A stretch of DNA of 63,235 bases, filler included, from Perkinsus olseni (Eukaryota), in NCBI GenBank assembly GCA_013115125.1. It is 3 parts of 3 records of this genome, joined end to end, with 100 filler letters (N's around TTAATTAATTAA, not from the genome) between each part and the next. Parts side by side here need not be neighbours in the genome. Positions count along the whole stretch, not along the records: positions 21,170 to 42,236 come from JABANN010000563.1; positions 42,337 to 63,235 come from JABANN010000564.1; 1 more part is not named here. One strand, written 5' to 3'. The position numbers and the translations under genes were made by a program. The notes below the pieces were generated by a model. That model had not been told where the DNA came from. It searched no databases and saw only the letters and a list, made by a program, of their open reading frames with translations. How positions within the stretch are numbered: position 1 is the stretch's first letter; each line of letters begins with the position of its first letter. Of this stretch, positions 21,169-55,096 are shown in pieces.

Positions 21169-21169
21169 N

Positions 21170-31042: not shown

Positions 31043-33180
31043 ATGGCATACGATGGTATATGGTTCTCGATAGAAGAAGCAGATAGGGTCTTCAATGCAT
31101 TTCTGTATAAAATCTTCCGTCGAGAGGGGAAGAAGCCGTCGCCCACCTACGACTTTATCGCCGATTTCCTAACAAAGGAGGTCCTCGGTTGGCTGATAAC
31201 ATTCCCGTACGAACTCTTGGCCAAATTCGTAGCACGAGGAGTCTATCATATCAATGGTGTGGCGTCGGCAAGTGTTGTTGGTGTAAGAACAAGTGTATCA
31301 CATATCGGGTATTGGCATCATCATCCTCCCTTCTCAGCTACTGGCTGGACTAACCCTCCCATCACCTTACAAGGAGTTCGCCTATGGTGGTGGTTTCACA
31401 TCAACCTCTTCTAATTCGGTGAGCCAATTTGAATCGCACGAAATGCCGAAATCGACCTAAAGATACCCATCTAGCGAAGTTGAATAACTTTTCTCGCTAC
31501 GCCAGAGTGCTGCTTGTCATAATCATCATCCGAAGTTCACATGTACTTACCATCCAGCAAGGTCGTTTCCTAGGACTATCCAGCGGTAACATCATCATTT
31601 TTTCCTCGCCCTTTGTCGCATCGGACTGGGAACATAAAATTCTTATTCTTCTTCTCGCGCAGCACCCCTTCGGCCAGGCAGGTGATAGCCAGTACAGGGG
31701 TATAGCTGCGGGCTCATATAAAATTAGGTCCTATTAATATAATATATATGCCAACTCTATGCATGCCCTTCACCTTCATTGATGAGATAATTATCATCAT
31801 TTGATTCACTGTCTCGCGAGGCTGACTTCACTCTCAAGTGAAAAGGAGTCGCCTTCTTATTTCTGCAGGCTTTTACCATCCAGTGGGAAGCCTTCATCTG
31901 CTTCGTCTTCGTTACCGTCAACAATGCCTTCCGACCGATTCTTAACGCTCTTGGAGGCAAACTAGGTGATCCCTCCAGCAGCTGCTCACCGTCTCCACGG
32001 CTCGGAACTCAGGGATGACGGTCTACGTCTCCGGCCACCTCAACGCTTTGCTCATCATCGCACTTAGTGGTGCCACTTTCGAGACCGCCAGTCTGGATCC
32101 GACTGAGAGATTCAATACTTGGTGGGTCAAAATTTGACCCTATTTGACCGTCAAATAGGTGTGGGGGGGGATCGTTGGGCGAAAGAGGACTTCTCAGGGT
32201 GGACTTCTGGTTCCACCGTTATAATAAGGGTAGTATCGTCACTAACGTGTTTGTGGACATCGCCTACGTCCTCGCCTGTGCCTTGGCTGGGGTAAGTCCG
32301 CCACTGCCATTGTTGTTTCAACGCCCGTCTTCCCTCCTCAGTGCGCCACCTTGTGGCTTCATGTTCATTTCGACAAGAACTCGAATCCTGTGGTGGCCTC
32401 CTCCTTAGTATCATTAGCAGCTGGCCTTTACCTTCCCCCTTCAACCAACCCCCTCAACTTCTTCATCTGGACCGGTTCTTTCGTTGGTAACAGCCATACC
32501 ACTCCTCGCCGTCATCGCCATCGATGATTCATCAGGCATGAGTAATCCCGCGGCCAAGCCCGGTGCCTACGCCCTCGTCCACTTTGACAATAAACCCCAG
32601 GTGTACTCCGATATGGTATCCTTATTTATCACCGGTATCATTGCCGGTCTCATTCAAATAGCCATCTGGTGGACCGCTCCCGGCATCGGCGGCAAATTCG
32701 GATTCATCGCCCACTGTGCATGTAAGCCCGTCAGTTTCCCATGGCATCCTCTCCTCTAACATCATCTCGTCAGGCCTGCCCATGCGTCTCTTCACGAAGT
32801 GGCGACAGCGGAAACGGTCGCGTGAAATCGTGGCCGACTCCGTCGTAGGGCAACCTGATTCAGTCAAGGCTTCCCTCAGCGATCTCCAGCCGACCGATGC
32901 CGAGTCGTCCGACGAACCCTTATCTGAGCAGGCCTTGCCGAATGAGAAGGACTCGGAGAACGAGAGCTCCTCTGAGTTCTTCTCCGACCTAGACGAAGAA
33001 GCGGCCGACGAGGAGTTGATCGAGGGTGATCTGAAAGTGAGGGTGGACCAGTCCGAGGACGGGTTAGAAGTTGTAGAAAAGTTGAACACGGCAGCTCACC
33101 ACGGGGGAAAGGATCCCGAAGGGGAGGAGATGAACCACATCAAGAGAAGAACCACGACGGAGATGCAGGAATACCTGTAA
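31043..33180 (+). CDS. Uncharacterised multi-pass membrane protein with internal duplication (copy 1)
   Basis: Two homologous halves (FAYGGGFTS...ALGGKLG and FIWTGSFVGMS...GIGGKFGFIA), many hydrophobic helices and an acidic C-terminal tail. Confidence 0.85.
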
Positions 33181-34124
33181 CACGATTCTGCCGCTTCTCG
33201 GTGGGCTTGGACCCGACAGGCTCCATCTCGCCCTAGTTAGTCGTGACTTGCCATCGTCTGATGCGTGCTGCTGTGCGCGAAGGGACGAAGTGTTCACGAA
33301 TCTTCTTACTTTCCCGCATCTCATTTTTCTTCAATTTTTTTGCTTCTCGGTTTCAAGTCAGAGAGTATTTTTGTTGTTGTTTTTTCTCATTCGACGGGAA
33401 GTTTTTTGAAGTAAACGGAAGAGCTGTCTCGAGGGAGTGTTCACCACTAGATACAGAGAGGCCACCGTTACGTTACCGCCTTTACACGCTTCGAGTAGAC
33501 CGTATTAACTGCCTGGGAAGTCTGGCTCAGGACGATGGGTATATCGACGGCCGCGGCCGCCTCCTCCGTTGGCTCTGTCACGGCTTAGCCTCGCAGTAAT
33601 ACACGTTGCCATCAAGCGGGCTTGTAATCGTCCCTCCTCAGTTCAAACTTCAGAACTCTGACATAGAGACTCGACAGGCCAAGTAAAGAGTGGCCGCGGC
33701 GTCCTGACTTGGAAGGAGAGGGCTGCTAATCTGTCTACTTCATCATCCACTGCGCACAACGTCACGCTGTCTCCACGTCAACGCTTCCAGCACGAGGCCC
33801 TCCACCCGAGAGCCCGCTGTTCACGACGGAGGCTTCCAAAGCGGCAGGCAACAGCAAGAGACACCCGAGTCGAGGGTGATCGAGCATCGCATGAGTTCAT
33901 CGCCAATGGCCGGGCAGCTTCCATAAGTATTCAGCAGAGGGGCCTACCGCCAAATCGAAGAACGCCGATTAGAAGTTGGGGAAATTAAGGGAATCAAGCT
34001 GGTCGAACTTCATGAGTTCCTCTTTCCGTCACGTGCAAGCTTGGCTTCATTCAGTCCAGGGATAACAACGAGTATCTAAGGTTGATGCGAGGCTTCGACA
34101 GATACACCCCCCCGCTCAAGAAAT

Positions 34125-34766: not shown

Positions 34767-35281
34767 CAAATTCTTCCGCGCGCGCCACAAATCTTTTTCC
34801 CGTGGCACAAATTCTTCCTCTGAGGCATACTCGGTTAAGTCATCACTTGTATAACAGCCTTGCCTTGTATAACAGCCTTGCCTTGCATAACAGTTCGGGT
34901 TTCGGGTTTCCCTCAGTAACAGCCCAGCCCCGGGTAACACCTCGGGTTTCGGGTTGCCCTGTAATCATTGTTTTTTTCTTCTCGGCCCCGGCTGTAACAG
35001 CCCAGCCTTGTATAACAGCCCAGCTTGTATAACAGTTCGTACCTTGAGCTTTGTAACGCACCCGTGGATTGAATTCGGCCTTGCAATCGATGGTTTTACC
35101 CCGCAGTTTTTTTACTGAAGGTGCTTCTATAAGGAAGCACCTATCAGAAGAAGTACTAACAGTGCGCCCCCACGCGGATAGCCCCCAAAATGGAGTTTGC
35201 TCTGAATAGGATTCTTTGTGCCCTCCAAAAGAAATTTGTGCCCCGGAAAAATAAATTAGTGCCGGGCGCGCGAAAATTTCC
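34767..35281. mobile_element. Non-autonomous TIR element (~515 nt) with internal tandem repeats
   Basis: ~60-nt imperfect inverted termini (34767-34827 vs 35219-35281) built from GGCACAAATT units; internal (GTA)TAACAGCC repeats at 34849-35040. Confidence 0.65.
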
Positions 35282-35595: not shown

Positions 35596-37379
35596 ATGGC
35601 ATACGATGGTATATGGTTCTCGATAGAAGAAGCAGAGAGGGTCTTCAATGCATTCCTGTATAAAATCTTCCGTCGAGAGGGGAAGAAGCCGTCGCCCACC
35701 TACGACTTTATCGCCGATTTCCTAACGAAGGAGGTCCTCGGTTGGCTGATAACATTTCCGTACGAACTCTTGGCCAAATACGTAGCACGAGGAGTCTATC
35801 ATATCAATGGTGTGGCGTCGGCAAGTGTTGTTGGTGTAAGAACAAGTGTATCACATATCGGGTATTGGCATCATCATCCTCCCTTCTCAGCTACTGGCTG
35901 GACTAACCCTCCCATCACCTTACAAGGAGTTCGCCTATGGTGGTGGTTTCACATCATGCTCGACCAACGCGGTAGGCAGTGGCCTATTGACACTGATCGA
36001 AGATACCTTTTGTTATTTTCCTCAGGCGTTCACTATAAAGTGGGAGGCTTTCATATGCTTCGTCTTCATCACTGTCAATAACGCCTTTCGTCCGATCCTC
36101 AACGGTTTAGGTGGCAAATTAGGTAATTTCCAATTTATGCTACTTTACCATTATTAACCTATTTTTCTCTTCCCCAGGTATGACGGTGTACGTGGCTGGC
36201 CACATCAGCGCCTTATTCATTGTGGCCTTCCAAAGTGGTACTTTCGAGACCACCTGTCTCGACCCGACAGCACGTTTCGGGACTTGGTAATTCTGGCCTA
36301 CCTTACGCTATCATATTCTTCCTCGTTCTCAGGGTGGACTTCTGGTTCCACCGTTATAATAATGGTAGTATCGTCACTAACGTGTTTGTTGACATCGCCT
36401 ACGTCCTCGCCTGCGCCTTGGCTGGGGTAAGTCCGCCACTGCCATTGTTGTTCCAACGCCTGTCTTCCCTCCTCAGTGCGTCACCTTGTGGCTTCATGTT
36501 CATTTCGATAAGAACTCGAATCCTGTGGTGGCCTCTTCATTAGTATCATTAGCAGCTGGCCTTTACCTTCCCCCTTCAACCAACCCCCTCAACTTCTTCA
36601 TTTGGACCGGTTCTTTCGTTGGTAATAGCCATACCACTCCTCGCCATCATCGTCACTCTTGTTGTCACCATCAGGCATGAGTGCCCCAGCGGCCAAGCCC
36701 GGTGCCTACGCCCTCGTCCACTTTGACAATAAACCCCAGGTGTACTCCGATATGGTATCTTTATTTATCACCGGTATCATTGCCGGTCTCATTCAAATAG
36801 CCATCTGGTGGACCGCTCCCGGCATCGGCGGCAAATTCGGATTTATCGCCCACTGTGCATGTAAGCCCGTCAGTTTGGTCATTCCTGTTGACACCCCTCT
36901 TGCCAGGCCTGCCCATGCATCTCTTCACGAAGTGGCGCAACAACAGACGAGAGCGGAAAGCAGCGCTGAAGGACGACGGCCTGGTTGCGAAGAAGGGTAA
37001 TTATGATGACGACGATTCTTACGTGACGGAAATGAAGCCAAAGGCTGCGGTCTGGGAGGATGACGACGAGGAGGATGTGATGACGTCAGTGGACGGGTTG
37101 AAGGGCGCCTCTGGCGACGAGCCCGATCCTGAGGGTGATGATAGCACTTCCGAGTCGTCATCGTTTGGTATGGGTGAAGATGCTGCTGCTGGTGTGTTCG
37201 GCGGCCGACCCCCGACTGAGATGCGTCCGATGCAGGCAGCTGACCATGAACCCGAGGAGGAGGAAGACGGTGTGATTGTGGAGAGGTTGGAGATGCCCCA
37301 AGCAGGCAGCAGACGAGGGGACGAGAGCGGTAGTGAGTTGAAGCTGAGGTCGATGTCACAAGTGCAATCGTATCTTTGA
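35596..37379 (+). CDS. Uncharacterised multi-pass membrane protein (copy 2)
   Basis: Same exon structure and motifs as copy 1 (NGLGGKLG, GSFVGMS, GIGGKFG); different acidic tail. Confidence 0.85.
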
Positions 37380-39366
37380 ATCCGTGGGTTGCCAGCTTCA
37401 ACCTAAGATACGCTAGGGTTCCTGCTTGAGTGTTGGTGAATGGCCTTTCGAAACGATAGGTGCCGCCCCTGGTGTGCTGATCGTGTTCGGAAGGCCCTCC
37501 CCTTCCTGTCGATGTTTAGTCTTTCTTCCTTTGCTTGTTCGTGTCCTGCTTCCCTCCTAGTTACCATTCTTCCACCGCCACGATTATTCTACTGCTGATG
37601 TCATTGCCTTTCCTTCACAACGCGCAATGAGTCGTTTCTACAGTTACTTGCTTCACTTCTGTGCGTAGAGTTGTAATCAATTGGGTTCCTTCCCGGGCCG
37701 AAACCGTTACGGTGCATGCTGGACTGAGTAATAAGTTGAGATTGGGTGTTACTACGACTACACACTAGGTATAGTCATCAGCTACAGCAGCTACACCCTC
37801 ATACTGGCTAGCACCCGCCCGGTCGAAGGGGTGATGCACAAGAAGAAAAAGACACACTAAGTTACGGGTAGTAGGAGGCTATTGGTCGAACAGTGGTGAC
37901 CGTCTGCTAACATCGCTGTGCGTGCTCACTTCCGTCAGCTATTACTCGTTTCTTTGCGGTTATGATGATGTCATTAAATGGCCTTCAAGAAAGACCACCG
38001 ACTGACGAGGAGACTGAGGGGTAGTTGACGAGGGGTGATACTGTAGCGTTGTAGTCCTCTCGCTGGCGCCATGCTCGCGCATCTCGGAGGTTGGTCTTGG
38101 CCCGTGAGTGTGTAACCGGCGCTGTCCTCAGGTGTAGTAGTAGTGGTAGTAGTACCCCAGAGTGCGGAGAAGGGTGGGATCTCTCTGTAAGAGATTCCCA
38201 GGCGTTGAACGGTTAAGCAATTCTAAGTTTCTTTGTTAAGGCTAAGCATGGGGTGGATCCTTGGCTACTGCGCCAACGCTTGTTGGACCTGCAGGAGCAT
38301 CGTCGAAGGAGGAGAAGGGCTGACCGCCGGAAGGTGGTAGTGACAATTTCGGGGCGCGCGACATTTTCTGTTCGGGTTCAGCGTCCATCGGGAGTCTTTC
38401 CAGCGGCTTTTGTGGTGACCCTAGTTGCCGCGGCAACCTGGATCAGCATGGTGGATCTGGTAGTATCTTAGGGAATCTTAGGTTGATCATGGGCAGTGAT
38501 GGAATTTTCCATCAGACTGTGAGTAACTTGGCGACCTTAATGGCGGCGCTGGCTGCTTTTGCCCTCGGCGTTTTCCTCGAGCGTCGTCATCAACAGTTGA
38601 CAGCAACTGAGAGGACAGCGTCGATTCATCCATCCACTAATGCTGAGCATGAGTTGGGTGAGGAGTGGTACTAGTGAAGGTTGGGGTTGTGTTATTATCA
38701 TGGTGCGGTAGCAGGCCCCTCGCCTACTTCTTTTCGGGCGTATTGCTTGTAAGGATTCCTGCTAGACAGGACTACTACCATAGACATTCTCACTAATATC
38801 AGATGGGAAATGGGCATAACAACGAATTAGGATGTGCTGGACGTGCGGTATGAACCGGTATGAAAGTCCTTAGAGAAAATCCCGACAACTTTCAGATCGT
38901 CATTGCGGCAGGAGGCAGACTAGGATAGTTTTGTACTACCTAGAGATAACGTACAAGGTGAAGATCCACCCCCACCCTCATAGTGAGAGGGATGCTGCAT
39001 CCTCAGGTGGGTGTCAGAATTATGCCCATCATCTTGACTCGATCCAAGTAGGCTACTAGCCGGCCCAAGGTTGTTGGGATCTCACGGACACGACAGCTGA
39101 ACAAGACTTAGGATTTTCAGTTTGGGGTCGCTGTGTGGACACTTCTAGGTATATCTTGATCAGAGTAAACAGCCCCGGTGGGGAAGATGAGGGCGGTTTT
39201 CTCGGAGGGACCGATCGAGGGTCTTTGGGGTTGTCCGATGAACCGACTTTGAGGTCGATTCTGGAGCCGTGTATTACACGTAAAAAACAATCTTAGAATC
39301 GATTCTGAATTTCAGAATCGCCTTTATCGGACACCAGTGGATTGCCCATCATTCTCACAGTAGTTG

Positions 39367-41138
39367 ATGTTTTTCAAGCCACCTTATGCAAAATGCAAAT
39401 GCGGTGACCTCACCACCACCTCCCTTCTCCCCAACCTCATCGTCGTCATCATCAGCTACGCAGTGTCTCTGTCGTCCATCCTCCTAGCCAAGTACGCAGC
39501 TGAGGAGGTCTACGGCGTCTCTGGCGTCGCCTCAGCTAGCACCATCGGGGTGAGGGCGCCCTGCGACTGCCGCTGTTCTCACAGCCGATCAGATCCTCGC
39601 CGGCCTGACCCTCCCGTCGCCCTACCGAGAGACCGCCTACGGGGCGAGTTTTGTCTCAGCATCAACGAATGGGGTCCGCCTACAGCGTCTCGCAGTTACC
39701 GAACTCCTTCCTGGCAGGCCTTCACCATCCAATGGGAGCCCTTCATCTGCTTCGTCTACGTCTGTGTCGTATTCTCCCTCCGCCACGCGCTGCTTGGGAT
39801 CGGAGGAAAGCTCGGTAGCCTCTCCCTCTGCCGTCACTGGGCAGCCTGTCCTGAGCAGGAATGATGGCCTACGTAGCCGGCCACATCAGCGCCCTCTTTA
39901 TCGTCCTAGTCGGCGCTGGTAGCTGGTCCACAACCAGTCTGGATCCCGATGATGCCTTTGAGTCCTGGTAATAGGGGTTCGTAGAGCCGACAGAGTATCG
40001 AGAAAGCCCGAAGCTTTTTCTTCTGAGACCCTGTCTATGCGCACCGGACCAATAATTGGTAGCTTATACGTTAAAGACGAAAGAGAAATTAAACCGTAGC
40101 TGTTGTTGTGGCGATAGGAGTCACTACAGCTGTCCCCTCTCCTGGAGGCCATCCTGTCTGTGTCAGGGTGGACTTCTGGTTTCGCTCCCATGCTGACGGC
40201 AACGTCCTCATCTCCACCATCATCACCATCTGCTTCGTGATTGCATGTGGAACTGCTAGTGTAATAACCCCGCTTCGCTCCGCCCTTGAAATGAGTCACG
40301 CTTTTCCTTTTTTCAGTCCCTCACCCTATGGTTGCATCTACATTTTGATAATCATCTATCCCCAGTAGTGGCCTCCTCCCTAGTCTCGCTGGCAGCCGGT
40401 CTGTTCTTGCCTCCCAGTACCAACCCTCTCATGTTCTTCATTTGGACTGGCTCCTTCGTCGGTGAGAACTAGTTGATCTGCGCCCACACTGTTACTTTTA
40501 TCATCTTCCGGCGTCACTCTTTTCGAATTACTCCTCCGCCACTACGTCGATTGAACTCGCTGTCGTATATCATTCGAAAGCTCGGGACTGTGTAGTTGGT
40601 AAAAAACGTAATCGCCTTCGTTGCCATTCTTGCAGCCAAAATTGTTGTATTTAGATCGTCCCGAAAAAATACAAAAATGCCGTGCCGGGGTTCGAACCCG
40701 GGAACGTCCGCTTTTTCGCTGTGAGGGTTCATCATGATTAGGTATGAGTGGCCCGGCAGCCTCTCCGGGAGCATACAGCATCATCACCGTCAAAGATTCT
40801 CCGGTCCTCTCTGACGTAACTTCGATATTTCTCACCGGACTCTGGGCTGGTATCTTATTGATATCATTTTGGTGGTGGACGGGCGAGATCGGCGGCCGCT
40901 ACGGCTTCATTGCATTCGTTGCCTGTACGCCTCTCGCAGCTCGGGTAAAGGCCGTCGATGCTTCCATCTCCCTTCAGGTATCACCGTCCACTTGCTCACA
41001 AAAATCCTCAGAAGAAAAGGCCCGGAAGCGGAGGAGTCTGGCGACGATACGGATGATATTGGAAAGGAGAACGCTGATTCAGAAGTCGAAGTCTTGTCGA
41101 GGCCAGCGGTCACTACTACTGGGTTCGAGTCGGTTTGA
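39367..41138 (+). CDS. Uncharacterised multi-pass membrane protein (copy 3, more divergent; true start may lie upstream)
   Basis: LLAKYAAEEVYGVSGVASASTIG, AFTIQWEPFICF, GIGGKLG, RVDFWF, GSFVGMS and GEIGGRYGFIAF. Confidence 0.8.
40678..40712 (-). other. tRNA 3'-half relic (T-arm/B-box) inside an intron, followed by oligo-T
   Basis: Minus strand CCGGG-TTCGAAC-CCCGG-CACGGCA-TTTTTGTATTTTTT; no A-box or D-arm upstream, so not a complete tRNA. Confidence 0.55.
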
Positions 41139-41427: not shown

Positions 41428-42060
41428 ATGCAGCCCTGGCTTCTTATCGTACTACTCTCGCTGTCCTGGTCGTGTTGTATGATAAGCTGGGCGGTTCAGA
41501 TAGGATACAGTACACCGACTTTGAAGCATTTGGGCATGTCTGATGCCATGGTAAGGAGGCTCTCGCACGGCAGTGGAAGATTATCCATTGGAATGTCATT
41601 CTTGTCGGCAATGGGAAGAGGGGTCCTTCTGAATATTAATAAAGTCCTTGACTCAAGTTGTCCTCGAGGCTCGCTTAGCCCTGCCTGCATTTCAACGCTA
41701 CAGAGAGTCCCCAACTGAGCACGTCGGTTTCGAGTCTGACTAAGCCGAACCGGCGTTGGACGATAAACTCACAGCTACGAATGGAACGATTCGGCATTGA
41801 CACCTGCCCGTTATTATAGTCTTCATGCCTTGGTCATCAGTTCGAACCACATTAGAGTTTATAGTAACGGAGTCGATTTGGCGTTTCGGACTGCACGCAA
41901 GGTCAATGGACTGCTACAGTTGAACTTATCGATTATTGCTCACCCTTATCAGGTGTCATTCACGTGGCTGGCGGGCCCCCTCTCCGGTATGCTGGTCCAA
42001 CCAGTAGTCGGCGTCCTCTCCGATAGGGTCGGCCGTCGGCGTAAACCCTTCCTCTGTGCC
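41428..42060 (+). CDS. SUC/SLC45-type (GPH/MFS) sugar transporter, 5' part, truncated at contig end
   Basis: ISWAVQIGYSTPTLKHLGM|VSFTWLAGPLSGMLVQPVVGVLSDRVGRRRKPF; intron at 41551-41952. Confidence 0.88.
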
Positions 42061-42236: not shown

Positions 42237-42335
42237 NNNNNNNNNNNNNNNNNNNNNNNNNNNNNNNNNNNNNNNNNNNNTTAATTAATTAANNNNNNNN
42301 NNNNNNNNNNNNNNNNNNNNNNNNNNNNNNNNNNN
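42237..42335. other. Assembly gap with TTAATTAATTAA linker
   Basis: N run + linker at 42281-42292 + N run. Confidence 0.97.
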
Positions 42336-44283
42336 NCTTGTTGAGGAGGTCAGTGGCATCAGCACCGCTGTTGCGGGCCAGCGTACGAGGGATGCACTCG
42401 AGCGCTCTAAAGAGAAGACCGATGAGTCAACACTCACGAGCTCAGACCCCCACCTAGCGTAGTAATTAGTAACGGCCTGGTCAGCTCCAGTGCAGGTTCT
42501 GGAGTACTCCCGAAGGTAGCGCGACAGCTCGAGTTCAATGGCACCACCGCCACCAACAATCTAGAGACAAGGCAATGGCCCTTGAACACAGGGGACTGTC
42601 GTACCTTGGAGCACTTGAGGGCCCTCCTGACGATCATAACAGCATCGTGAAGAGAACGCTCAGCCTCCTCGATAAACTGAGCTGCGCCACCGCGCAGGAT
42701 GATGGTAGCTGAAAAGGAGGAGAACAATTTGAGACAAACCCCGCCCATCCAGATGGCGTTGGCATTACCACTCTTCGACTGGGGGCACTGGTGGAAGACG
42801 TTGTAGCGCTCATTGCCGATCTGGACCTCCTCGAAGCTCCCGCAAGTCCCGAGCACATCGGCAGTTAGACCGTTCACTGTGGTTTGGATCGACCCGCCGA
42901 CGGCCTGTGAGGACGACGGTGACAGGCAGGTCGACAGGGGTTGCGGCTTACCAAAAGCGTGCGGTTCATGTCGTCCTGATCGACCCTGCCAGCGCAGAAG
43001 ATGTTGCGATCGGCGAAGTACTGGGTGGCGAGGTCTCCGATGGGCAGGCGAGAGAGCACAACTTGGGCGCCGCTCTTGGCTATGTTATCAAGCTTCTCGT
43101 AGATGACGTTCCACTCAGCATCCACAATCTCTTGATACTCGTCCGGGTTCGAAATACGGACCTACCGCAGCACAAATATTCGGAAGGCCACCGAGGGGCG
43201 ACCGAGGCCTACCTCAGCGTTGTCCTTCTCTGCCTTCAACTCCAACTCCAAGTTCAGGAGGAGAATCTTGGGGTGCTTGAAGTACTTCGGCTGCTGCTCG
43301 AAACCTGACAGACGACGGTAGAGCTTGGAATGGTGACAGTGGTGCTGACCAGCATAGGAGAAGGTCTTCTTGAAAGCAACTCCATCGACGAGCCTGGACT
43401 CAGTCAGAGATCCGCCGGGGACCTTCTTGAAACCAATCATGTTGACAGGGAGGGAATCTTGGTCCAGCATCAGCACGGCAGACACGACCATGTCGGAAAA
43501 GAATCTGATGACGATCACCCGCCATAGACAACCCAGCTGCTGCTCATTGCTGTTATTACTTCTTCTGGCCACTGACGAGCTTGCTGTTGAGCGTGGTCTC
43601 TGCGCACTTGACCAGCATGGCTCTCTTCTCCTCCGGCGCCTTGGCCGTCAAATCCACGGCCAGCTCCTCGAGCTTGTCTGACAACAACACCATCCACTCT
43701 CCCCCCACACCGGAGCCAGTCTACTCAAGGCGAGCTCGAGGGCCTTGCGGTAGCCCTTGAGGAGGGCGCGAGGAGGCAGGCCCTCCTCCAGGAACATCTT
43801 GGCCTCCTTCAGGAGCTCAGCCGCCAGCAGCACAACCGATGTAGTGCCATCTCCGACCTGACAACACTTGCGATTTCCAACCCTCCCATACGGTCCTTCC
43901 CACCTCAGCGTCCTGAGCCTTCGAGATGTCGGACATGAGCTTGGCAGCCGGGTGGCTGATGTTGAGGAGACTCATGACGGTCGCGCCATCGTTGGTGATG
44001 GTCGGCTCTCGGTTCTCGGAGTGAATTAGCTTGTCCATACCCCTGGGACCTGCAGGAGACCATCAACCGCGAAGCCAGCCCAGAAGCAGCAGCAGCAGTA
44101 CCCAATGTCGTTCGGACGATGTCCGCGATAACCTCGCACGCGTTGATGTTAGAAATAATCTGAGGGATACCTGAGACACAGAAGAAGACACTGAGTGAGG
44201 AGGTCGGCGGGAGAGGCCGTGGTACCCTGGGAGGAGTCGGTGCCCTGCTTGAGGAGGATGATGTTGGGGCGAAGAGAAGTCAT
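42336..44283 (-). CDS. CCT7: Chaperonin CCT/TRiC subunit eta (3' end truncated at gap)
   Basis: [81 protein letters not shown] and [18 protein letters not shown]. Confidence 0.95.
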
Positions 44284-44406
44284 GATCGATTACAAGCCGA
44301 GAGATTGACGATGAGCCAAGAAACTGTCAAAAGATTCCAACACCACGGGCGGCAGTCTCCAACGCAACACAACGTCACAAATCACAACAACAACAACCGA
44401 GATCAA

Positions 44407-46254
44407 CTATTCATGGTATGCTTCAACGGTGTAGTCGCTAAGGTAGTGCCCTCCGCTGCTGCTGCTGGCCTTCACCGTAACAGCCACCCACGCCGCAGCC
44501 CCCCTACTCACCCAGGCCGCGTACCTAGCCCTTACGTCGCTGACTACCTCCCGATGGTCACAGAAAGCACAGGCATCCTCCCTGCCAGGACCTCCCCGAC
44601 GCGCCGCCGGGGGCCTGACAGACTCGCTGAGCGTCGCAGGTGGAGGAGGTCCAGCTGGTAACTTCACCGAGTTGCGCAGTAGAGAGGTTCTCGTATGGCA
44701 AACGTCAGGAGGCACCCCTCTCCCCGGAGGCTTGCCACGGATACTCAGGACGGCTTTCTGAGTATCTTTTCGGGCACGTAGGTCACGCTTAACCTCAACC
44801 CACAGCTTGAACAGACGTCGCTTCAAAAGATACCTTTCTCGCACTTGCTGTAGAGCCCTCCTTCGAGCTTCCGAGTACCCCTTCCCGGGCTGCCACGGTG
44901 GCAACACCTCCAACTTCGCCCGAGACCCTCCCACCACCCGGTGGGGTCGCCTCCGAGGTCTCACCGTAACACGTTTCAACCTCGGTGACATCGATGCTGA
45001 CCGCGGAGGTCGTTGGCCCAGTCTCTCAACGGCCACCTCGGTGTCAGACCACGAGCCACATGGTGGCCGTTTAGGTCCTTTCCGCCTCGGCAGTGGCCGT
45101 CGAAGGGCCGGGCAATTCTCCCCAAACGAAACAGTCTTACCTGATGGCGCTTTCCTGCATGGGAGCAAGGCCTTGGTGGGGCCTCTTGGCTTGATATCAC
45201 CCCTGATGGCTCTGAGGTCACTACCTGTGCAAGCTTTCGTCCGGACAGGCCCGAGCCGGAGAGGCCGTGTGCCGCGACTCGGGGGAGCCGTCGTCATCGC
45301 AGTTCTGCTTTTGGCCCACCTGACTGGCTTCGCAGAACCCTCAGCAGGAACCTCACGACGCCTTTGGAGAATCTTCAGAGTCTGCACGTGCGTGCTGATA
45401 CCAACTTTTCCGCAACTCCCGCGTTGGTCACCCTCGGTCGACCGTGGCGTTACCAGTGGCGTGAGGGAGACAGACGTCTCATGACCAACCGAATGAGCTG
45501 CCTCCTCCCTCGCAGGCCCTCTCTCCTCCCGCTTCACGCGATGTACCTGCATTCTGTCATATGCAAGCTTCAACCTAAGATGCGTACCTCCTGATGCAGC
45601 CTGTCCGCAGACACCAAAGTCCGTTCATCTCTCGACACAGAGCTGGACGAGCTCGAGTCCGGTATCACCCTCAACGGCCCCTGTATCAACTCCCAATTGC
45701 ACGAAACCTGAAGAAGGAAAATCCCAAAACTCACCGTCTGCCACGGCCAATCTCACCTCTAAGCCACGCTGCAGCGCTATGGGGTCTCCAACGTCGAATC
45801 GGCGAATATGACCGGGACTCGACCGGTCAGTATCGAAGTGACCACTAGGCTGCCTTGTATTGTGACCGAGCAGCTTCATCGAGGTCTCGCTGGTGGAGGA
45901 CGGACCATCACGGAAGGCACCACCATGACGGAGACCGGCCGGAGAAATGGTTGCACAAAGCTGCTGTCCCCTTTTGGCGCACGGGTCCGATACCACTCGT
46001 CTGTGGGTCAAGGGCCTCGGACACGGTAAGTCGGCAAGGAGCTCCTCCAAGGTACAGGCGGGTACATCTCTACAAGAGTGGCAGGGGTACTCTCCTACCA
46101 ACAACAGCAAAAGCTTCAGCGGAGCGAAGCGTTTCACGAATTGCATAATCGTACCAGCCAGCGACTGCCTCTCCCCCAGCTGTTCCTTGAGTAGCATCCT
46201 GACACACTCTTGCCTAACTCTGATGATATCCTCAGTGGCCGCGACCGATGGCAT
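44407..46254 (-). CDS. Hypothetical basic, low-complexity multi-exon protein
   Basis: ORFs 45625-46254 and 44407-45573 with plausible GT-AG introns between them; same strand as neighbours; no family recognised. Confidence 0.5.
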
Positions 46255-46443: not shown

Positions 46444-48848
46444 TCAGCTAGCCTCGGTGATAGACAGTGATGGTGCTAACAGCCAACACAGTGGTATCTA
46501 AGGTTGATGCTAGTACTTGACAAAACGGGCGAAGCGAAGATTTCACCTGGCATAGTGCAATAGCAATGACGACATACTTGATGAGCACGCTAGTGTGACT
46601 GCCCGACACCTCCAGGTGGGCCTGCATGGCCGTCTTGTATCTACAACCAGTCCTCATCGGCCAACGACACTAGGAAGACGCTTACGTTGTGAAGTACTGT
46701 AGCGAGACTAGGCAGGCGTAGCCTGCTGCAAGGGAGAGGTAACCCAACAGGACCCACCAAAAATACGCCTGAAGGGAGGGTTTTGACCCTGGACCGACAC
46801 GAAGTGGCACTACCGTAGGGACCTTGCTAGACAACAGTATCCGTGCTATGCAGTACACTGACAGGTGGAAGTACTTATACCCGATAACGCAGACCAAGTC
46901 CAACAGTCGCAGACTGAAAGGAGACACATTGCCGCGGCACTCACTGGTCACCAGCACTCACCTCGTCATGTTGACAAAGTACCCAGCAGCCCTTGCCAGG
47001 ACGAGCTCGATGATAGACAGTACCTAACAGTGAGGCCTCTCAGGCTTAACACCCTCCTCCTCGGGAGACCTACCGCGGCAAAGGTTGCCGTGTCGTAGAG
47101 GATATCTGGATGGAAGGACCCGTCATCCGCCGCTCCCTGATGCAACAGCGTGGAGAGGGCCGACCAGAGGCGACAGAATCTTACCTTGATCACCGCAAAG
47201 GCCAGAACATAAGTAATGAAGCTCATCAACGGTATGTACATATCCGGCCGGCGATCGGGCACCTGACCACAGAATTTGCCCACAATCCCCCTACCACTCC
47301 TCCCCCTACAAATCGCAGAGCCACCCCCTCGTTCGGATCTCCTGATCGCTGCGTCGGTGCTTGCAACTGAAAACGTGCTACATGAGGCCCCGGGCTCGTT
47401 GGCCCTCGGGCCCAACCTACATTATCCATCTCGTTGGCGCCATCGCCGCTGTAGTGTCTCTGGTTCCGTCCCGGCTGAAACAACCGCCTGACAGGAGTCC
47501 TGGACGCCCGCGAAGGTCGACACTTCTTACTTGACGAAGGGCATCATCAAAAATAAGCACTTCCATTTCACGTAGCTGTGGGTGATGTTAAAATAGGGCC
47601 GCAAACCTGCAACACTATCACAACCGCCACCCATCAGAGCGCCTTAGTACTGTCGAAGCCCCAAGGGACGAACTTGGTCCACCCCGATTCCTCCGCTTGC
47701 TGGTACAGGTTTTGGCCTACCTGAACGCTGCTGACTACAGACGAGGACCCCCTCAACCACCACCTTACCTGGCTCATAACAGCCCCTACCATCTCATCAT
47801 TGTTGCTGTCTAAAAGACCATCATGATACCTTCGTACAACCACCAGTATTAGCCTCACTTCCCTGTCTTCCCTGGGCACCTCCAAACGCTGTCTTAGCCG
47901 CCGCGTTGAAGGCAGCACCCACAAGTTGGTCTGCAAAGCCTCCCCCAGACGAAGCCGACTGGGCACCTGCGCAGCACAAGGTTTAACCTCTTCCCGAACC
48001 AAGAGGCCCCCCTCCCTACCCTGATGCTCCTCATGATGCTGCTGCGGCTTCTGCTGCTGCTGGTGGTACCCGTCAGGCCCTGGGTGACCAGCAGAGGCCT
48101 TCGAGAAGGGCTGCGGCGATACACTACCGAATGGCGAGTGGACAGACTGTTGATGATGCTGAGGATCGTGGCCCATATTAGTCCGCGCCATACCCTGCGG
48201 TTCCGACTGACAGAAAAAATGGAGCAAGGCACGATAATGGCGAAAGCTCACCCCAGCTGCTGTCGAGCTGCCCCATGGGCTCTCCGCCCCGCTACTGCCA
48301 AAGCCACTCGGACCGCTAGGGTGACCTGCGTGATGATGAGCGCACTAAGCCTGTGAAGGCAGACGACGAGTGAGCGACGCCCTTGTCTAGCTCCCACCGT
48401 GATGACGTGGTTGAACGACGTTTGCACTCATGACGATAAAAAGCGAGCTCAACAGCAAAAACGTTCCGCAACGCTATGCGTAAATTATTCCGATCAAGAC
48501 GGTCCTAGTTCTCATAGGAACGATTTAAGCATCCCACCATTACCTGCGTGTTGCGTCTCCATTCCGGGAGCGTGCACTCTGTTCCACGGCGCAGTCACTC
48601 CTCCTCCTCCTCCTCCTCCACCTCCAGGCCCCGGAGCTGAGGTAGGGGCCGATGCAGCTGTCTGCATGGGCGAGGCTTGCTGATACCTATAAGGGAAGGG
48701 GGTAACGACCCAGGTTCGATCCCTGCACCTAGTACCATCCTGCTGAGCCTCCTCCCTGCTGTTGTTGCTGCTGTTGAGCGGCGAACGGATTCTGCCGTAC
48801 CCGAGTATTCGGTGCCGCCACTCCCCGCTGTTGGTGTTGCGCTGACAT
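46444..48848 (-). CDS. YIF1: YIF1/Hrf1 family ER-Golgi membrane protein with Q/G-rich N-terminus
   Basis: LRPYFNITHSYVKWKCLFLMMPF, PDMYIPLMSFITYVL, LLDLVCVIGYKY and C-terminal TM segments. Confidence 0.88.
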
Positions 48849-49032: not shown

Positions 49033-51208
49033 TCAAAGCTGCCTCGGACGATAATTGAGAATGCCGAACACAGTACCAAGGGAAAGGCCAATGGACAGAG
49101 CAACAGCCCCGATCTCCACGCCACGGAAGAATCCAATATACGGCCGCATATCCGATAATATCTGACAACTCCAGCACTACCGACAATCTACCATAGCGGT
49201 AGAATCCTCATCCGCCATCCCAAAGACCCCAGCATCTATCCAACCACCTACCTTTTCACTGCGCTTATTGCGATCAGCCTGCAGCTGCACTTCCAACTGC
49301 TGCTTCAAAAGCTCTTCCTTATGATCCTCCGACGCTTCTTTGTCCCGAGAGAGAATGATATTCTTCATCCGGAAATATGAGTCGAACCGGAACTTCGCGT
49401 ACCTTATCAAAAATAAATCCCCTACCGCCTCACGACCAACCATCTCCCATTACACTAGGAAATCAAAGTCATCATAGGTCGGAGCCTGCGGGGCACGGAT
49501 GACGCTCCAAAGGCCCCACAGAAGATGAGAGGCCAGGGCGAACTTCGACACGTTCCTCATCAACGGCAAGATGTAGAGATCGTTGTCTGGGAAAATAGGG
49601 GTCTCCAAATACCTGACAATGACCATCACCAAAATCGGTATCGTCCGGCACGTGCGGCCCACAACGCGTCCGCCGAACTGAGGCACGCACGGTATGAATT
49701 CACGGAGGGACGTGCACAACACAGGACCGCGACCACCAACAGCACCGAGGAGACACTCAGGACCCTGGACACTTACTCGGAGAGATACACGCTGAGGAAC
49801 ATCCTCTGCGTCCGACGATCGGGATAGGCCGCCAGATCAGTAGCAAAGAAAGGGTAGTGCCTGCGGGACGACCAAGGTACGCAGACGAACCTCGTCCAGC
49901 ACTGGTCGCTTACGTCTCGGTGTAGTCCATAGTGAACTCACAGAAAAGATTCGCAATATCGTAAGCCTGGTAGTTGTAGTGAGCATACTCGAAATCAATC
50001 AAGCGGAGACCGTACTGGGTCTGCAAGATGTTGTTCTCTTGCACCTACATCAGCCACCCGTAGCCAACCACAACAACAGCAGCGAGGGGTGCTACATCAT
50101 TATGGGAGAAGACGACGTCCATGCCCTGCCCCTTCACTATGTCATTCTGGTTCTGTGTAAGGTAAGCTATGAGCCACCTAAGATACACCAAGATACGCTA
50201 TGCTACTCCGCCGGCGCACAGCCACGATTACTCGGCCTCCTTCACCATCCTTTCAACGTGTAGTCTGCTCAGCTTCCTGCGTTGCTCGGGCTCGACAAAA
50301 GACACCTTCGACGCCTCAGACGCCCAACTCCTGAATAAAAATTACAGCGGAGCGAAGCACTCCAACCATCTCACCTCAATCGCTTGATGGTAGCTGGTTC
50401 CGTGCTGAAGGACCTCGGGAAGTCTTGCCGCTGATCCAGCTTATGGAAACGGCCAAGTTGAGATGCAATCTGAGTTGATGATGACCCACAAGCAGCAGGA
50501 GAGCCTTCGTCCCACCTGGCACAGTATACTAGGGTTGTTAAGCAGCTTGGTCGGTACTGCAATCGAGGCATGCCACTCCTCAATCCGCCAGCCGTCACCC
50601 TGACCACCACAAGCTCCACCAACGACGCCAGCGCCTTTCTCATTACATAAGCTATCAACTGGGGTGCTATCCGATACCGCGACAAAGTCTTGAAGACCTT
50701 CAGTTCATACACTGGGTCGTAGAAGGACTTGGCGTCCTTGCCGTAAATTCTGACGAAAAAAAGCTTCGCTCCGCCTGCTCCTACTACGGCGCTGCTGACC
50801 GGAAGAGGACGCTTGTGAAAGGGACGGGGACGTCGTGGCTGGTGGGGCTGTCGGAGACCATCGAATCCGTTCGAGGCTTCGGCAGGGACACTCTGAACAG
50901 CTGATTGGAGAGGCCTTCGCACAGCTGGTTGATCTCGACCTAAAAATGCGGAAAAATTCTAGCGGAGCGATGCAGGTAAAATGGTAGTACATCTTCCGGA
51001 TTTACTCTGCCTTGCCACCCAGGGACCTTTTGCACGCACAACTCCGCTATCTTGGCAGGCTTAGATAACGAACTGAAGTCGGTCACCTACTCTGAATCAA
51101 TTCACCTCCATCGAATCAACTTCGACGAACCATGCTTACATTATCCGGCATATCATTGAGACCCGATATCTTCCGCACTGAGAACTTGCTCTGCTTGGGA
51201 TCTGACAT
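49033..51208 (-). CDS. Choline/ethanolamine kinase
   Basis: FVRIYG, ELKVFKTLS, LGRFH, QENNIL, LIDFEYA..NYQAYDIANLFCEF, FALASHLLWGLWSVI and YAKFRFDSY. Confidence 0.9.
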
Positions 51209-51768: not shown

Positions 51769-51770
<2 letters not shown>

Positions 51771-51806: not shown

Positions 51807-52073
51807 CTGGAGAATCGGCCATTTCCGGATAGTAGAAAGGGAACCTGTAGCCCGATAGAAGAGGCCCCCGCTCAACTCAACGCCCCAGGACAGCGTCGAT
51901 GGTGATGGTGATGATGTTGATCGGACTTCCAGTAATTTTACGTGCCAGGCGCGATTCTACTACCACTACTACTACTCAAGTGAGAGAAGCGACAGCAGCA
52001 GAAGTGTCGGCGAGATGGTGTCGCTAGGCGGTGAGCCTTCAGACCTGCGTCGTGAGGATGGTCATCATCCATT

Positions 52074-54401
52074 TTACAGTATACCAAGGGCTGCGTCCAT
52101 CTCGACAAGAACAGGCCTACAGAAGCAGCGCAACATATGACAACCCGTCCGCTATCACTGTCGGCCTACTTCGCCAAATTCTGCCAAGTTTCCTCATCAA
52201 CGCTGCTCATGTGCACGACTTGGCCATCATACTTGCGTCCCTTCATGCCAGTCATGCAAGCCTCGGCACCTGAGTACCACACCATCACCAAAAAAGGTAC
52301 GCGCACTCGACTCACCTCCGAGATCAGAGTACTCGAGACAGACATCGCCCGCGGCCAGGACCAACCCTTGGGTCGAAGGGTCCTGCGGACAAGTCAGATT
52401 TCCTCCACGCGACACAAGCTAGCACTACATGAACGTCAGCCGAAGCGACGTAGACCGCATCCAGTTTTCCAAAGTCCCCACAACCGCCCTTCATATCCTC
52501 GATCACATCAGTGTATTCATCCTTGGCAGTATTCGGCCCTACTCGTACAATCTGATGAAAAAAGTGTTAAATCGGTAAGAGGAGAAGAGGATGATACTCA
52601 CCTGAGCGAAGCGAACGATGCGACTGGTGGCTTGACCACCAAGATTTCCGACGGCACCTGAGCAGAGGACGAAGATTACCCAGCAGATGATACGCGTTTT
52701 AAAGAAAGAACAGCAATACCCTCCTAACGCCTCCAGCTGATTTATCATGGCAGAATGAATAGTAAAGGAGATGGTCGATGCAGGACGAGAGGACGGACAA
52801 CAATAATACCCTCCTAACCGGCGGCAATTATGAGTGATAGAAAGATAAACGAATTGATCATGGAGTGAGCGGGAGGACTACGGCGAAGGTCTCGTCTACA
52901 TGCGGGTATCAACTACTTATCATTTCTGAGGGGAAGGGTTTCATCTACTCCTAAGGTTTCCGTAATATTTAGCACGAACACTATCTTCAGACGTATCTCA
53001 GGTTGACTCGGACTATTCACAGAAAATGTCGAGGCCTCGTCAATTGACCTGTTTCGATTCCACTATACCAGTATTTGCGCGAGTTATCCGAGCAGACCCC
53101 CTCCCCTTTCCCCTACTGTTGGCTGCAGCTGCCGCTGCTGCCGCCACGACCGAATCGTTCAACATCGGCACGGTGGAGTCCTGATAGTCCGATGGCCGGC
53201 GAATAGTAATAGGAGCGCCCATAACGACGAGACCTGCCACGAAAATGACCGCTGCGCCACGAAATTAAACCGGAGACCCACCATCAAGCGCCAAGGCATT
53301 CTCGGTGTCTTCCAGTGTAGCAAACTCTACGAAGCCGTAGTTGCCTGAAGAGAATGGGGGAATCTTCGGGAGGTCCACGGCCCCGAATGAGGGCCTGCGC
53401 ATGCGTACCACCCTTCTCTCTGGCGAACCATACATGCAGGACGGGACTGTGGCCATCAGCAGCGATGCAGCCACGCTCACGGAGGGCGGCGAAGAGCTGC
53501 TGACCCAGGAACTCCTCCGTGAGACCTGAGAGAAATGATGCTGCTACCCCGAGAGTCTCAAGCGAGGCTATTGCACATGGCAATCGTTGATTCACTATTC
53601 TCATATAAGAGATCCCGCCGCTATGATAAAGTAACCCGGCGAGAGACTTCCTCGCTACCGTGAAGCTGGACACCCTAGCTTGCTATTATAAAGAAGCCCC
53701 ACAAGGGTCCCCTCCCTACCCAGTTGGATGGGCAGATTGGCAACATAAAGACGACGGTTCTTGCGAGTGGCGTTGTGCTGAGCCGAATCTTGGGTGCCGA
53801 TCTTAGGAATCCACTGGAAGCCATCCCAGAACATGTTTGAGCTGTTACCAGCCTGATGGGCCGACTTGTTAAGGAAACTGTCGAGGCATGAGCGTGAATG
53901 ACCAGCTTCGACCTAAGATACGCCCTTACTCTCGTTGGGATCTGCGACGCGCCTTCTCCCGCTCGGTGGAACTGTCACGATCGTCGCTACGCCTGAAAGA
54001 AAAATCATGTAATTTCGAATTCGCAAGAGAAATTGAACATCATCGCGCCTGAAAACTCAATCACGACAAACTTCGAAAATTCCTGAAATAAACTGATGAT
54101 GAACCTGATGGGTCGTCAGCTGGAGCGCCACGAAATTGCCGTTGACTTTTGTGAGAGCCTGAGCGAAGGAAGGGACAAGAGGCTTACTGGTGGTGTCTAT
54201 GGGACCTATGGCTTCGATGATGGTCGCGTTCACGGTCACGACTCCCTGAAAAATACAAGAGAGAAAATGAGAACTGCTAAGGGACTTGAAGAACCTGCGA
54301 AAATTTCGAGGAAGCGTCAGCTGAAAAAAATAGGTTCATAGGGAAAAATGGGTAACCTGTTGGCCCTTACCACTAGGAGTAGTAGTCGGATGGTCAGTCA
54401 T
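52074..54401 (-). CDS. U2AF large-subunit-like RRM/UHM splicing factor
   Basis: RS/RD-rich exon (SRDRERDHHRSHRSHR), RRLYVANLP (RNP2), NYGFVEF (RNP1), ALALDG...IRRPSDY, and a UHM-like end IEDMKGGCGDFG...MKGRKYDGQVV. Confidence 0.8.
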
Positions 54402-55096
54402 CGTCCGTCAAATCCCAATCACGGAACCCGAACTAACATCACGAGTATGTCTCATAAATTTTCGTGTCGAACCGACTAGAGTGTTGTCCAACGACGTGCG
54501 TGCTGACCTATTTGGTATCTTGCAATGGCCGACCTAGGATACTCCCGCCTGCCAATTACTATCGTGATGCCTGTCCCTTCGTGATCTGCTCCTACTGTAC
54601 GGCGATCGGCTGCGGCTTCTACCGTCGCGACCCATATTTGACAAGTTCGAGAGGAAAAAGAATAGCTGCCTGTTCTAGTGAAGTCATTTCATATCCTGCC
54701 AGAGTCAACCTCAGGATACCCCGACGCCCGAACAGTCACTGCAAGACTCAGCAATAACTCTTCCATCGATATCGACGCTCACCTGAAAGGATTCTCACAC
54801 GTACAACCTTTAAAACACACCCGAGGCGTGAAGCGCCGACCATTATCGCAGAATGCTTAATCGATCATAATGGCGCGCGCGGTTGACGTTAAGCGCAAGA
54901 TCCACGGTTTCTGAGCACGCGGTCGCTCCGACTTTCCACCCTTTCTTCTTCTTGCTGGTCTCCTTGGTAGGTCGAGCAGCTGGTTGAAAATGCTCCTCTC
55001 GTTGCTTCTCTGCCTTGTCGAAGGCCTGGGAAGAGCGCCGTTATAGTTCCCCCCCGTGAACCGCTGTTTTCAGTTACCACTCGGCTGACCGTTTCT

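Follow-up and report, generated by a model that had tools for sequence, protein, structure and literature searches.

A dispersed 33–41-bp motif of the Perkinsus olseni genome, probably a selected DNA-level site for a sequence-specific factor

The window, by which we mean the whole analysed stretch of 63,235 nucleotides from the shellfish parasite Perkinsus olseni, carries a kynureninase-like gene, a membrane-protein gene, a choline-kinase gene and further intron-bearing genes, and a recurrent non-coding motif is scattered within and between them (Table 1). The copies quoted when the motif was originally predicted are found where they were placed, those at 37392-37413 and 53902-53923 agreeing at 21/22 bases. 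Their excess over chance holds as well: when up to 3 mismatches are tolerated, the window holds 7 matches to the 17-mer where 0.09 would be expected, and 7 was reached in 0/100 shuffles. The loose variant at 31452 did not reach the threshold of our model. The first reading of the sequence had passed over the full-length copies at 29876-29915 and 54503-54542 and the entire tail of the site.

Three copies had been described as lying in sense shortly after the donor of short introns in three different genes. This is borne out for the 53902 copy, whose 52-nt intron (53878-53929) is seen in RNA contigs from four runs of four studies, three of them only presumed to be RNA; for the 45566 copy the 41-nt intron is predicted. 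The 50177 copy forms instead the acceptor (TCTTAG/GTGG) of a predicted 54-nt intron, 50178-50231, in the choline-kinase gene (PF01633): with this acceptor the frame stays open into FSHND/QENNIL, whereas placing the copy close to a donor leaves an in-frame stop. The alternative intron was drawn one base off at both ends, yet its stop falls in sequence that is retained in either case. Five bases of the core, together with the tail, would thus be coding there, and a tandem half-site stands 10 bases before this site. The proposed overlap of the 46494 copy with an acceptor agrees with an RNA contig piece ending at 46497.

Table 1. Motif sites in the window; scores are those of the matrix model.
Feature	Position	Strand	Score	Context
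33-bp site	27078..27110	-	17.1	overlaps stop codon and 3' flank of kynureninase-like gene (gene model, weak Pfam match)
Weak 33-bp site	27220..27252	+	13.8	intergenic
Full-length form (core, inverted half-site, second AGGTY)	29876..29915	+	23.7	antisense, predicted intron
Loose variant, one-base register shift	31452..31467	-		under model threshold, uncalled
33-bp site	34072..34104	+	20.9	intergenic
33-bp site, exact core	37379..37411	-	29.0	antisense, just past in-frame TGA (37377-37379) of membrane-protein gene; region wrongly fused by gene finder
Site at 38473 after tandem 10-base half-site	38463..38505	+	22.0	probably intergenic
33-bp site	45551..45583	-	24.5	sense, fills most of predicted 41-nt intron 45547-45587
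33-bp site	46494..46526	+	22.1	antisense, core bases 5-6 are acceptor AG of intron 46498-46546
Weak site	47176..47208	+	13.4	across predicted donor in gene of 46494 site
Site	50154..50186	-	15.7	sense, core bases 8-9 are acceptor AG of predicted intron 50178-50231; tail in exon
33-bp site	52993..53025	+	20.0	antisense, within RNA-shown 459-nt intron 52658-53116
33-bp site	53889..53921	-	21.1	sense, within RNA-shown 52-nt intron 53878-53929
Full-length form	54503..54542	-	29.9	sense, within RNA-shown 314-nt intron 54246-54559
Register-shifted site	54704..54719	-	15.9	upstream of gene hosting 54503..54542

The motif is genuine. The 39.9-Mb genome contains 457 exact copies of the 14-base core and none of the reversed control, and if one mismatch is allowed the counts are 1,342 and 11, as expected of the undescribed genome-wide element that had been proposed. 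The right half occurs 196 times against 2, and the inverted pair gives 123 strand-hits against 0, a palindromic count in which many loci appear twice. We estimate a few thousand copies of the site. The short form, ~33 bp long, consists of the core, a G at position 20, a near-random spacer and AC-purine at 27-29. Within the core, half-site a (GWATCYT, bases 1-7) abuts half-site b (AGGTYGA, bases 8-14); G20 and, beyond the spacer, AC plus purines at 27-31 stand at a fixed distance. The optional long form of 41 bp adds an inverted a (AAGATAC at 22-28) and a second b, AGGTY, at 34-38, and places the centres of a and inverted a 21 bp apart, equal to two helical turns. It is confined to a minority of sites: 9/102 exact cores, counted as matching AAGAT at 4-5 of 5 bases, or 46/175 sites by a mixture model. 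The inner b may shift by one base, the second module being in register in 45 cases and shifted by one base in 20. Information content is ~24 bits for the short form and 24-37 bits across site forms. A 10-bp periodic array was also considered and dropped, as tandem half-sites at -9 occur in only 2/102 sites.

Conservation skips the spacer. Among 103 distinct exact-core sites, picked on the core alone, G20 is kept in 89%, A27 in 66% and C28 in 59%, and pairwise identity at 21-26 is 0.278 against ~0.26 in the flanks. Sites without AAGAT retain AC at 27-28 in 31/86 cases (p 3e-16; 1-7 at other offsets) and G20 in 76/86, and identity of a pair at 15-19 does not raise its likeness at 22-26 (0.253 against 0.266-0.287). 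The core itself is tolerant in a position-specific manner: among 129 short-form sites A3, T4 and C5 are present in 127-128, T2 in 93 and T12 in 84, with C at position 12 in 40, and bases 8-10 are variable. The tail is alike in antisense (n=28; G20 0.89, A27 0.71, C28 0.79) and sense copies (n=96; G20 0.92, A27 0.64, C28 0.60), and copies outside genes keep it as genic ones do. No long-range pairing stood out.

Site density is 0.28/kb in genes against 0.24/kb in intergenic DNA (118 vs 57 sites, p 0.27), the intergenic class taking in missed genes and UTR introns, and four of the nine contiguous pieces having been chosen as site-rich. Because this chromosomal density is alike in and between genes, sites crowd into short introns, where they reach 5.5 times the intergenic density, stratified by contig. 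The gene models were self-trained and recovered 11/14 RNA introns, which had also seeded them. Exact cores lie in or across predicted introns in 79/100 cases, commonly in a register that overlaps the acceptor, and many copies sit deep in long introns or between genes. Offsets in short introns range from 0 to 31 nt from the donor and from -5 to 38 nt from the acceptor, in several registers, and the median length is 49 nt with or without a site (51 vs 1,018 introns). Among 76 sites with a motif-masked gene strand, 57 are sense and 19 antisense, a 75% sense share that falls within the 60-80% predicted from intron composition; in introns and junctions the A-rich long form is more often antisense (17 copies) than sense (6). 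Positions along genes are evenly spread (23/18/16/17), neighbouring sites are randomly oriented (37/35/34/29) and the host genes are unrelated to each other. Neither start against stop proximity (23 vs 17 sites, p 0.34) nor divergent against convergent spacers (20 vs 11 sites, p 0.37) made a difference. A divergent strand switch lies no more than 1 kb from 24.6% of sites and from 7.4% of introns, but a link to strand switches was dropped, since that control ignores intergenic DNA. Along the genome the sites cluster (variance/mean 2.4, p 2e-7), together with B-boxes and two other motifs (r 0.18-0.31 after control for intron content and GC).

We consider it probable, from sequence comparison, that the motif is the site of a general and probably chromatin-organising putative factor, kept by selection. 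The reader of the 33–41 bp would most likely be a sequence-specific multi-domain protein or complex acting at the DNA level. A tail present in both orientations, variable splice offsets, the lack of target duplication and host introns of normal length are better accommodated by a selected DNA-protein site than by a splicing signal, a telomere insert or an Introner, and the core counts and the tail conserved beyond the spacer lend support to the protein-binding signal among the original suggestions. Such a protein would make its main contact on positions 1-20 and a second on 27-31, the long form offering optional extra contacts. Selection would maintain how densely sites occur locally along the chromosome, irrespective of annotation, so that genic sites would end up in ~49-nt introns, often borrowing the acceptor AG. 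Since the sites occur in unrelated genes and are biased neither to promoters or 5' ends nor to one polarity, the factor would be general rather than pathway-specific; of this step we are least sure.

Several observations count against a selected site or feed its principal rival, an ancient mobile module, non-autonomous and corresponding to the 41-bp form with an inverted repeat of 7 bp, that spread, made or filled introns on hitting genes and decayed, selection on the core being a later exaptation. Insertions that create introns would likewise give equal density in and between genes, the long form makes up nearly the whole of some introns, and site-rich genes have about twice the introns per kb of coding sequence (6.7 vs 3.6 in site-poor genes). 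Pairwise-identity variance is inflated (6.23 vs 5.46 in a block-shuffled null, sd 0.17, 0/300; long form p 0.017), so some shared descent or long-range coupling exists, and tandem arrays of 23-50-bp period contain the motif, so copying happens. Site-bearing introns are absent from old paralogues in 9/9 cases (6 distinct introns) against 40/89 for others, a control confounded by younger tandem families. We nevertheless hold a mobile origin to be unlikely. No target duplication of 2-9 bases was found at nine candidate right ends in 15 full copies, the register to either splice site is not fixed, flanks and spacer are unrelated between copies, and host introns are no longer than others, all of which disfavours the micro-mobile element seeding introns that had been envisaged. 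Exact cores mostly lack the right half and are not the youngest full copies, and the survival of AC at 27-28 where 22-26 is random is explained neither by truncation nor by the uniform decay from a master expected of a MITE. The inverted repeat would suit a MITE or another TIR transposon, but it is restricted to the long form, and conservation extends 10-13 bases past it. BLAST of 186 sites against the examined loci revealed no longer element with common flanks, and a search for presence/absence pairs gave one near-identical duplicate only. A tyrosine-recombinase site was rejected: the symmetry lies in the outer and not the inner bases, contrary to the layout of such sites, and the recombinase that turned up is part of a DIRS-like element whose ends carry no site. 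According to excerpts of PMC8101967, the terminal inverted repeats of P. marinus Merlin elements were not identified. Introners as presented in parts of PMC9860276, and the Amoebophrya elements in parts of PMC7789003, resemble the site in recurring in introns of unrelated genes, in both orientations, and in the inverted repeat of the long form. The site differs from them in having no end-to-end similarity up to both splice boundaries (flank identity equals background), no boundary repeat, and neither the target duplication nor the fixed splice-site register that are marks, if not universal ones, of that family.

The remaining explanations fare worse. A site serving replication, recombination or segregation (as an origin, a hotspot or a mark for pairing), whose reader would be a complex and not a chromatin or transcription factor, would fit the bipartite length, orientation independence, domain clustering and indifference to gene structure equally well; yet the flanks are neither A+T-rich nor poly(A/T) (0.503 vs 0.499 A+T), neighbours show no polarity and a density rising to one site per 1.4 kb is high for origins, and we regard such a mark as improbable. 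The splicing signal first proposed, an RNA-level element bound by protein or snRNA in pre-mRNA, could draw on the intronic location of most exact cores, their frequent acceptor overlap and the sense bias. It is already largely refuted, and we give it very little credence: composition accounts for the bias, the 19/76 antisense copies and the intergenic ones have the same tail, donor and acceptor offsets vary where a sense-only, fixed-offset signal was expected, and the suggested snRNA complementarity comes down to a best ungapped core identity of 8-9/14 to U2, U6, 5S-like and 7SL genes, with no pairing signal. No site lies upstream of the U2, one U6, 7SL or 5S-like genes in the manner of a PSE (scores <=7.0 except 9.7 at one U6); Rfam, run over the window and over six 10-kb loci, detected nothing but 7SL, and ARAGORN predicted no tRNA either within the window or next to the snRNA loci. 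A k-mer first taken for 5S proved to be a local tandem repeat.

Finally, we find it hardly credible that the copies are inserts left by templated repair or by telomerase from a TTAGG repeat, or that they descend from the spliced leader or from tRNA boxes. The core does contain TTAGG, and a 9.7-bit look-alike precedes one of the three U6 genes examined by ~80 bases, standing like an A-box ahead of a reversed B-box. Yet core bases 8-10 vary, the assembly, which may be without chromosome ends, yielded no TTAGG-type arrays, inserts would not keep a fixed tail past a random spacer, and b is one base shorter than a B-box, does not follow GTTCRANNC and has no B-box at a fixed distance after it, the real B-boxes being a separate motif. 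Compared by eye and with gaps allowed, the core loosely resembles the 3' portion of the Perkinsus leader in the text of PMC3101222 available; against the telomere-like insert stands the candidate repeat TTTCGGG given for another species, P. marinus, in excerpts of PMC3622300.

If the motif is a protein site, its factor would be somewhat more probably than otherwise an organiser of chromatin or domains in housekeeping regions rich in introns, judging by the distribution of copies; a general transcription factor is a possible but less favoured reader, and a reader of replication or SMC loading sites rather a doubtful one. C2H2 and Myb searches for the binding protein gave one multi-finger array and ordinary Myb proteins: PF00096 had 6 matches, the array on C2630 consisting of generic finger matches and intron-split arrays being liable to be missed, and no SHAQKY-type Myb passed the cut-off. 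Tentatively, the site could, together with lone B-boxes and two or more further long motifs, form a DNA-encoded chromatin-domain code, held at set densities across housekeeping domains, in which mini-introns serve as, or were gained as, slots for sites in genes. With such a code, the sister group of dinoflagellates would have a genome organiser that is sequence-specific, and intron gain would have a selective explanation. How dinoflagellates, next to which perkinsids branch, handle their chromatin and control transcription has long been a puzzle. A 24-37-bit site is an immediate handle for finding its putative protein, and it makes testable the idea that tiny introns are kept or gained as hosts of DNA-level sites, not for RNA functions. 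A 20-base degenerate pattern matched metagenomes at 17 isolated places, with no second site nearby, and a scan of viruses gave 11 single matches, all taken as chance; no other carrier was found in either. A full-text literature search with four 10-mers listed matches unrelated by title, and we found no description of a genome-wide cis-element for perkinsids.

Yeast general regulatory factors such as Reb1, and TTF-I with its Sal box, are systems of sequence-specific DNA sites like the present one; half-site b presumably resembles the Sal box and half-site a, we assume, GARP-type Myb sites. The ApiAP2 and other transcription-factor motifs of alveolates are likewise sequence-specific DNA sites, the AP2 motifs named in excerpts of PMC4117751 being 5-8 bp long and upstream of genes, whereas the site here spans 33-41 bp, holds ~24 bits in its short form and has no promoter bias. 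Architectural-protein and TFIIIC clusters of Drosophila and mammals, as treated in parts of PMC4226948, also combine several motifs, B-boxes included, without fixed spacing; there ChIP and domain maps place them at borders, whereas here the evidence is sequence co-occurrence over multi-kb domains, and the B-boxes that cluster with the site may be tRNA relics. From CTCF sites, as far as sections of PMC12885311 describe them, the motif differs in that no sequence likeness was noted, no long CTCF-like finger array was identified, neighbours are not convergently oriented, density rises to one per 1.4 kb, and copies sit in ~49-nt introns and share splice sites. It is like them in being long and widely dispersed, with a core in all copies and, at near-fixed if variable spacing, an optional second module in a minority, just as the optional upstream module of CTCF is present in 13-15% of sites (PMC12885311, same sections).

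The motif is probably a functional DNA site and apparently one that has gone undescribed so far. In the assembly of the same genome (G000; 39.9 Mb, 3,353 contigs), its exact core, made of half-site a (GWATCYT, bases 1-7) and half-site b (AGGTYGA, bases 8-14), occurs 457 times, 252 on one strand and 205 on the other, and the reversed pattern 0 times; with one mismatch allowed, the counts are 1,342 and 11 for the reversed control. No description of the motif was found in the literature searched, which mostly excluded subscription papers. The original prediction of an undescribed genome-wide element is supported. Every motif copy that it quoted is present in the window, and its claim of an above-chance frequency agrees with 7 window matches against 0.09 expected. 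Among 7-mers, GTATCTT shows the greatest excess in a sample of 400 kb (128 versus 49.5). A two-class model run over 661 kb of contiguous sequence found 175 sites, as against 1 in the reversed sequence; scaling by the ratio of sites to exact cores (175:23) gives a genome total of ~3,500, which is only rough because four of the nine pieces were chosen as site-rich.

Across 103 distinct exact-core sites, the sequence is non-random from -2 to 33, with C17 (73%), T18 (60%) and G20 (89%), little preference at bases 21-26, then A27 (66%), C28 (59%) and purines at 29-31. The strongest dependencies link near neighbours (15-16 and 19-21), and dependency analysis gave nothing outstanding in the way of long-range pairing within the site. 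The inverted half-site pair yielded 123 strand-hits versus 0 in the control and the right half 196 matches versus 2, and therefore a long form exists; a degenerate left half lies in register, by eye, in most of the 100 right-half matches listed. The long form is laid out as a (1-7), b (8-14), inverted a (22-28) and b (34-38); 20 of 65 copies have b offset by a single base. Information content is ~24 bits for the short form and ~37 bits for the long form; exact matches served to seed the core but not the tail.

The shape of the site, its strand independence and its spread are direct observations. Site density per chromosomal kb is 0.28 in genes and 0.24 between them (p 0.27), or 0.27 and 0.20 with tandem copies merged, and short introns carry 5.5 times the intergenic rate. 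Neither a 5' bias in genes nor neighbour polarity was found, and promoter bias was not significant. Sites are clustered, the sparsest region having 8 in 130 kb and the densest 36 in 50 kb. Their host genes are unrelated by Pfam (119 exons searched, the majority without a match) and include RNA polymerase large subunit, GAPDH, a proteasome subunit, coatomer, Syf1, BBS5, helicases and carriers. Tandem paralogues, often transporters, are commoner in site-free stretches (21/72 versus 7/59, p 0.019).

We consider it most likely, with fair though far from complete assurance, that the motif is kept by selection as the binding site of a general DNA-binding factor with several domains. Such a factor would bind the site; with less certainty, selection would act to hold the local density of sites; and, with the least, the bound factor may organise chromatin. 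Searches for C2H2 and Myb proteins identified no binder, yielding one multi-finger C2H2 array, probably TFIIIA, and several Myb proteins that we take to be R2R3-, SNAPC4- and CDC5-like. The main rival, though unlikely, is that the motif is an old intron-seeding module, because the equal density within and between genes also fits it, as do the higher intron density of site-rich genes and a paralogue comparison that is confounded. Target duplication was absent from the 15 full copies examined, and introns hosting sites have the usual length.

That the motif is a splicing signal, as had been suggested, is argued against by a tail equally strong in antisense sites, by variable splice-site offsets and by a sense share within the 60-80% predicted from intron composition alone. 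With the motif masked at 140 sites, both flanks agreed on sense at 57 and on antisense at 19, a single flank called 27 and 15, 4 were discordant and 18 had no call; the long form leans antisense. Offsets peak with the acceptor within the core or 21-27 bases past it, as we would expect of a 36-base site packed into a 45-base intron. Among 21 acceptor-overlapping sites, the tail is kept in the predicted exon (G20 in 17, C28 in 12, a purine at 29 in 18). For the proposed check on snRNA complementarity, the core was compared with the U2, U6, 5S-like and 7SL genes and agrees with them at just 8-9 of 14 bases. Exact cores (n=100, 3 of 103 having been dropped at locus edges) fall in introns (56), across junctions (23), in intergenic (14) or coding sequence (6) and at a gene edge (1), in a sample that is 46% exon. 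The gene models come from a purpose-written self-training finder that recovered 11 of 14 RNA introns, the same introns having also seeded it. In the window, RNA contigs from four studies (15 of 49 joints examined; three of the four runs only presumed to be RNA) support introns 53878-53929, 52658-53116 and 54246-54559, whose sites are sense, antisense and sense. The copy at 46494 is consistent with the reported acceptor overlap; that at 45566 does lie in a short intron, albeit a predicted one; and that at 50177, placed shortly after a donor, sits instead at a predicted acceptor.

A short form derived by truncation or decay of the long form would give a smooth fall-off of conservation, with perfect cores as the youngest full copies, which is not the pattern seen: the right half is present in only 9 of 102 perfect cores, and of the 86 perfect cores without it, 76 retain G20 and 31 retain AC at 27-28 (p 3e-16). 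Site pairs identical at 15-19 have no higher spacer likeness, and mismatch tolerance in the core differs by position. For a selected binding site there are three caveats: pairwise-identity variance exceeds the block-shuffled null, the motif is carried in tandem arrays, and some introns are almost wholly module. Site-bearing minisatellites have a 23-50-bp period and a unit holding the whole site or half; one lies inside a predicted intron of an RNA polymerase large-subunit gene.

Near exact cores, density is raised 5.5x for B-boxes, 2.7x for GCGGAGCGAAGC and 4.9x for CGCCACGAAA (controls 0.9-1.7x), and this co-clustering survives control for intron content and GC (131 bins), with neither constant distance nor constant orientation relative to the site. 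In 400 kb, GCGGAGCGAAGC has 22 copies and CGCCACGAAA 13, on both strands and with unrelated flanks; both motifs are densest in short introns. Some lone B-boxes in the window are followed by tRNA-tail-like sequence. At loci L137 and L138, U2 and one U6 gene share an element starting GGAGACAG, seen by eye ~90-125 bases upstream, which may be an snRNA promoter element and differs from the main motif. At loci L139 and L141, two U6 genes are preceded, at 60-150 bases, by an A-box-like stretch and a B-box in reverse orientation; the main-motif score of one copy is 9.7, and ARAGORN found no tRNA at these stretches. The arrangement is similar to that of trypanosome U6, with its divergent tRNA gene.

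The window has 53% G+C, is dense in ~50-nt GT-AG introns and holds an alveolin-like repeat gene. Across 1,555 predicted introns, the exon starts after the acceptor with G (61%) and T (55%) in a strong AG/GT context, which may be a record of intron gain. A loose RNA-contig end at 44325 agrees with the 3' portion of the spliced leader of Perkinsus, as given in PMC3101222; this is the trans-splice site of the CCT chaperonin gene, and a 9-base leader-like relic lies in the genome three bases 3' of it. TTTCGGG is a reported telomere candidate in P. marinus (PMC3622300). The inverted-repeat stretch and its related ends are likely a MITE family. The first two membrane-protein paralogues are 97-98% identical in parts, and the exon searched has no Pfam match.

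Coordinates of features in the window and elsewhere in the assembly
Feature	Location	Strand	Detail
GCGGAGCGAAGC copies	window 40272-40283, 46119-46130, 50347-50358, 50763-50774		
CGCCACGAAA copies	window 53255-53264, 54126-54135		
Lone tRNA-type B-boxes	window 48713, 48892, 49379-49388, 40689, 30180		
CCT trans-splice site	window 44312-44325		
7SL (SRP) RNA gene	window 61795-62077	-	100.8 bits
Short interstitial TTTCGGG-type repeats	window 34894-34909, 34942-34955		
Inverted-repeat stretch	window 15591-16308		~720 bp; 29-bp terminal inverted repeats (97%)
Related end sequences	window 29499-29584, 41685-41772		
Membrane-protein paralogues	window 31043-33180, 35596-37379, 39367-41128		three, in tandem
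N padding with TTAATTAATTAA linker	window 21070-21169, 42237-42336		three contigs in window
DIRS-like retroelement	L031 (locus):3057-6125		reverse-transcriptase-like ORF (by eye), then tyrosine-recombinase ORF
Minisatellites with site-bearing unit	G000 contigs C320:3684-3919, C837:24595-24962, C1560:1147-1410, C2729:24037-24188, C343:52190-52328, C365:6520-6720, C1449:18925-19010		

The main site lacks two Introner hallmarks set out in PMC9860276, likeness that runs to near both splice boundaries and a target duplication or constant mode of recruiting splice sites, and it differs from the Amoebophrya elements as PMC7789003 describes them. The tests run gave it membership neither in CTCF-type nor in TFIIIC-clustered architectural sites. 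It would work like a CTCF-type site, a second module being optional in both (PMC12885311), and is reminiscent of the clustered architectural sites with TFIIIC presented in PMC4226948.
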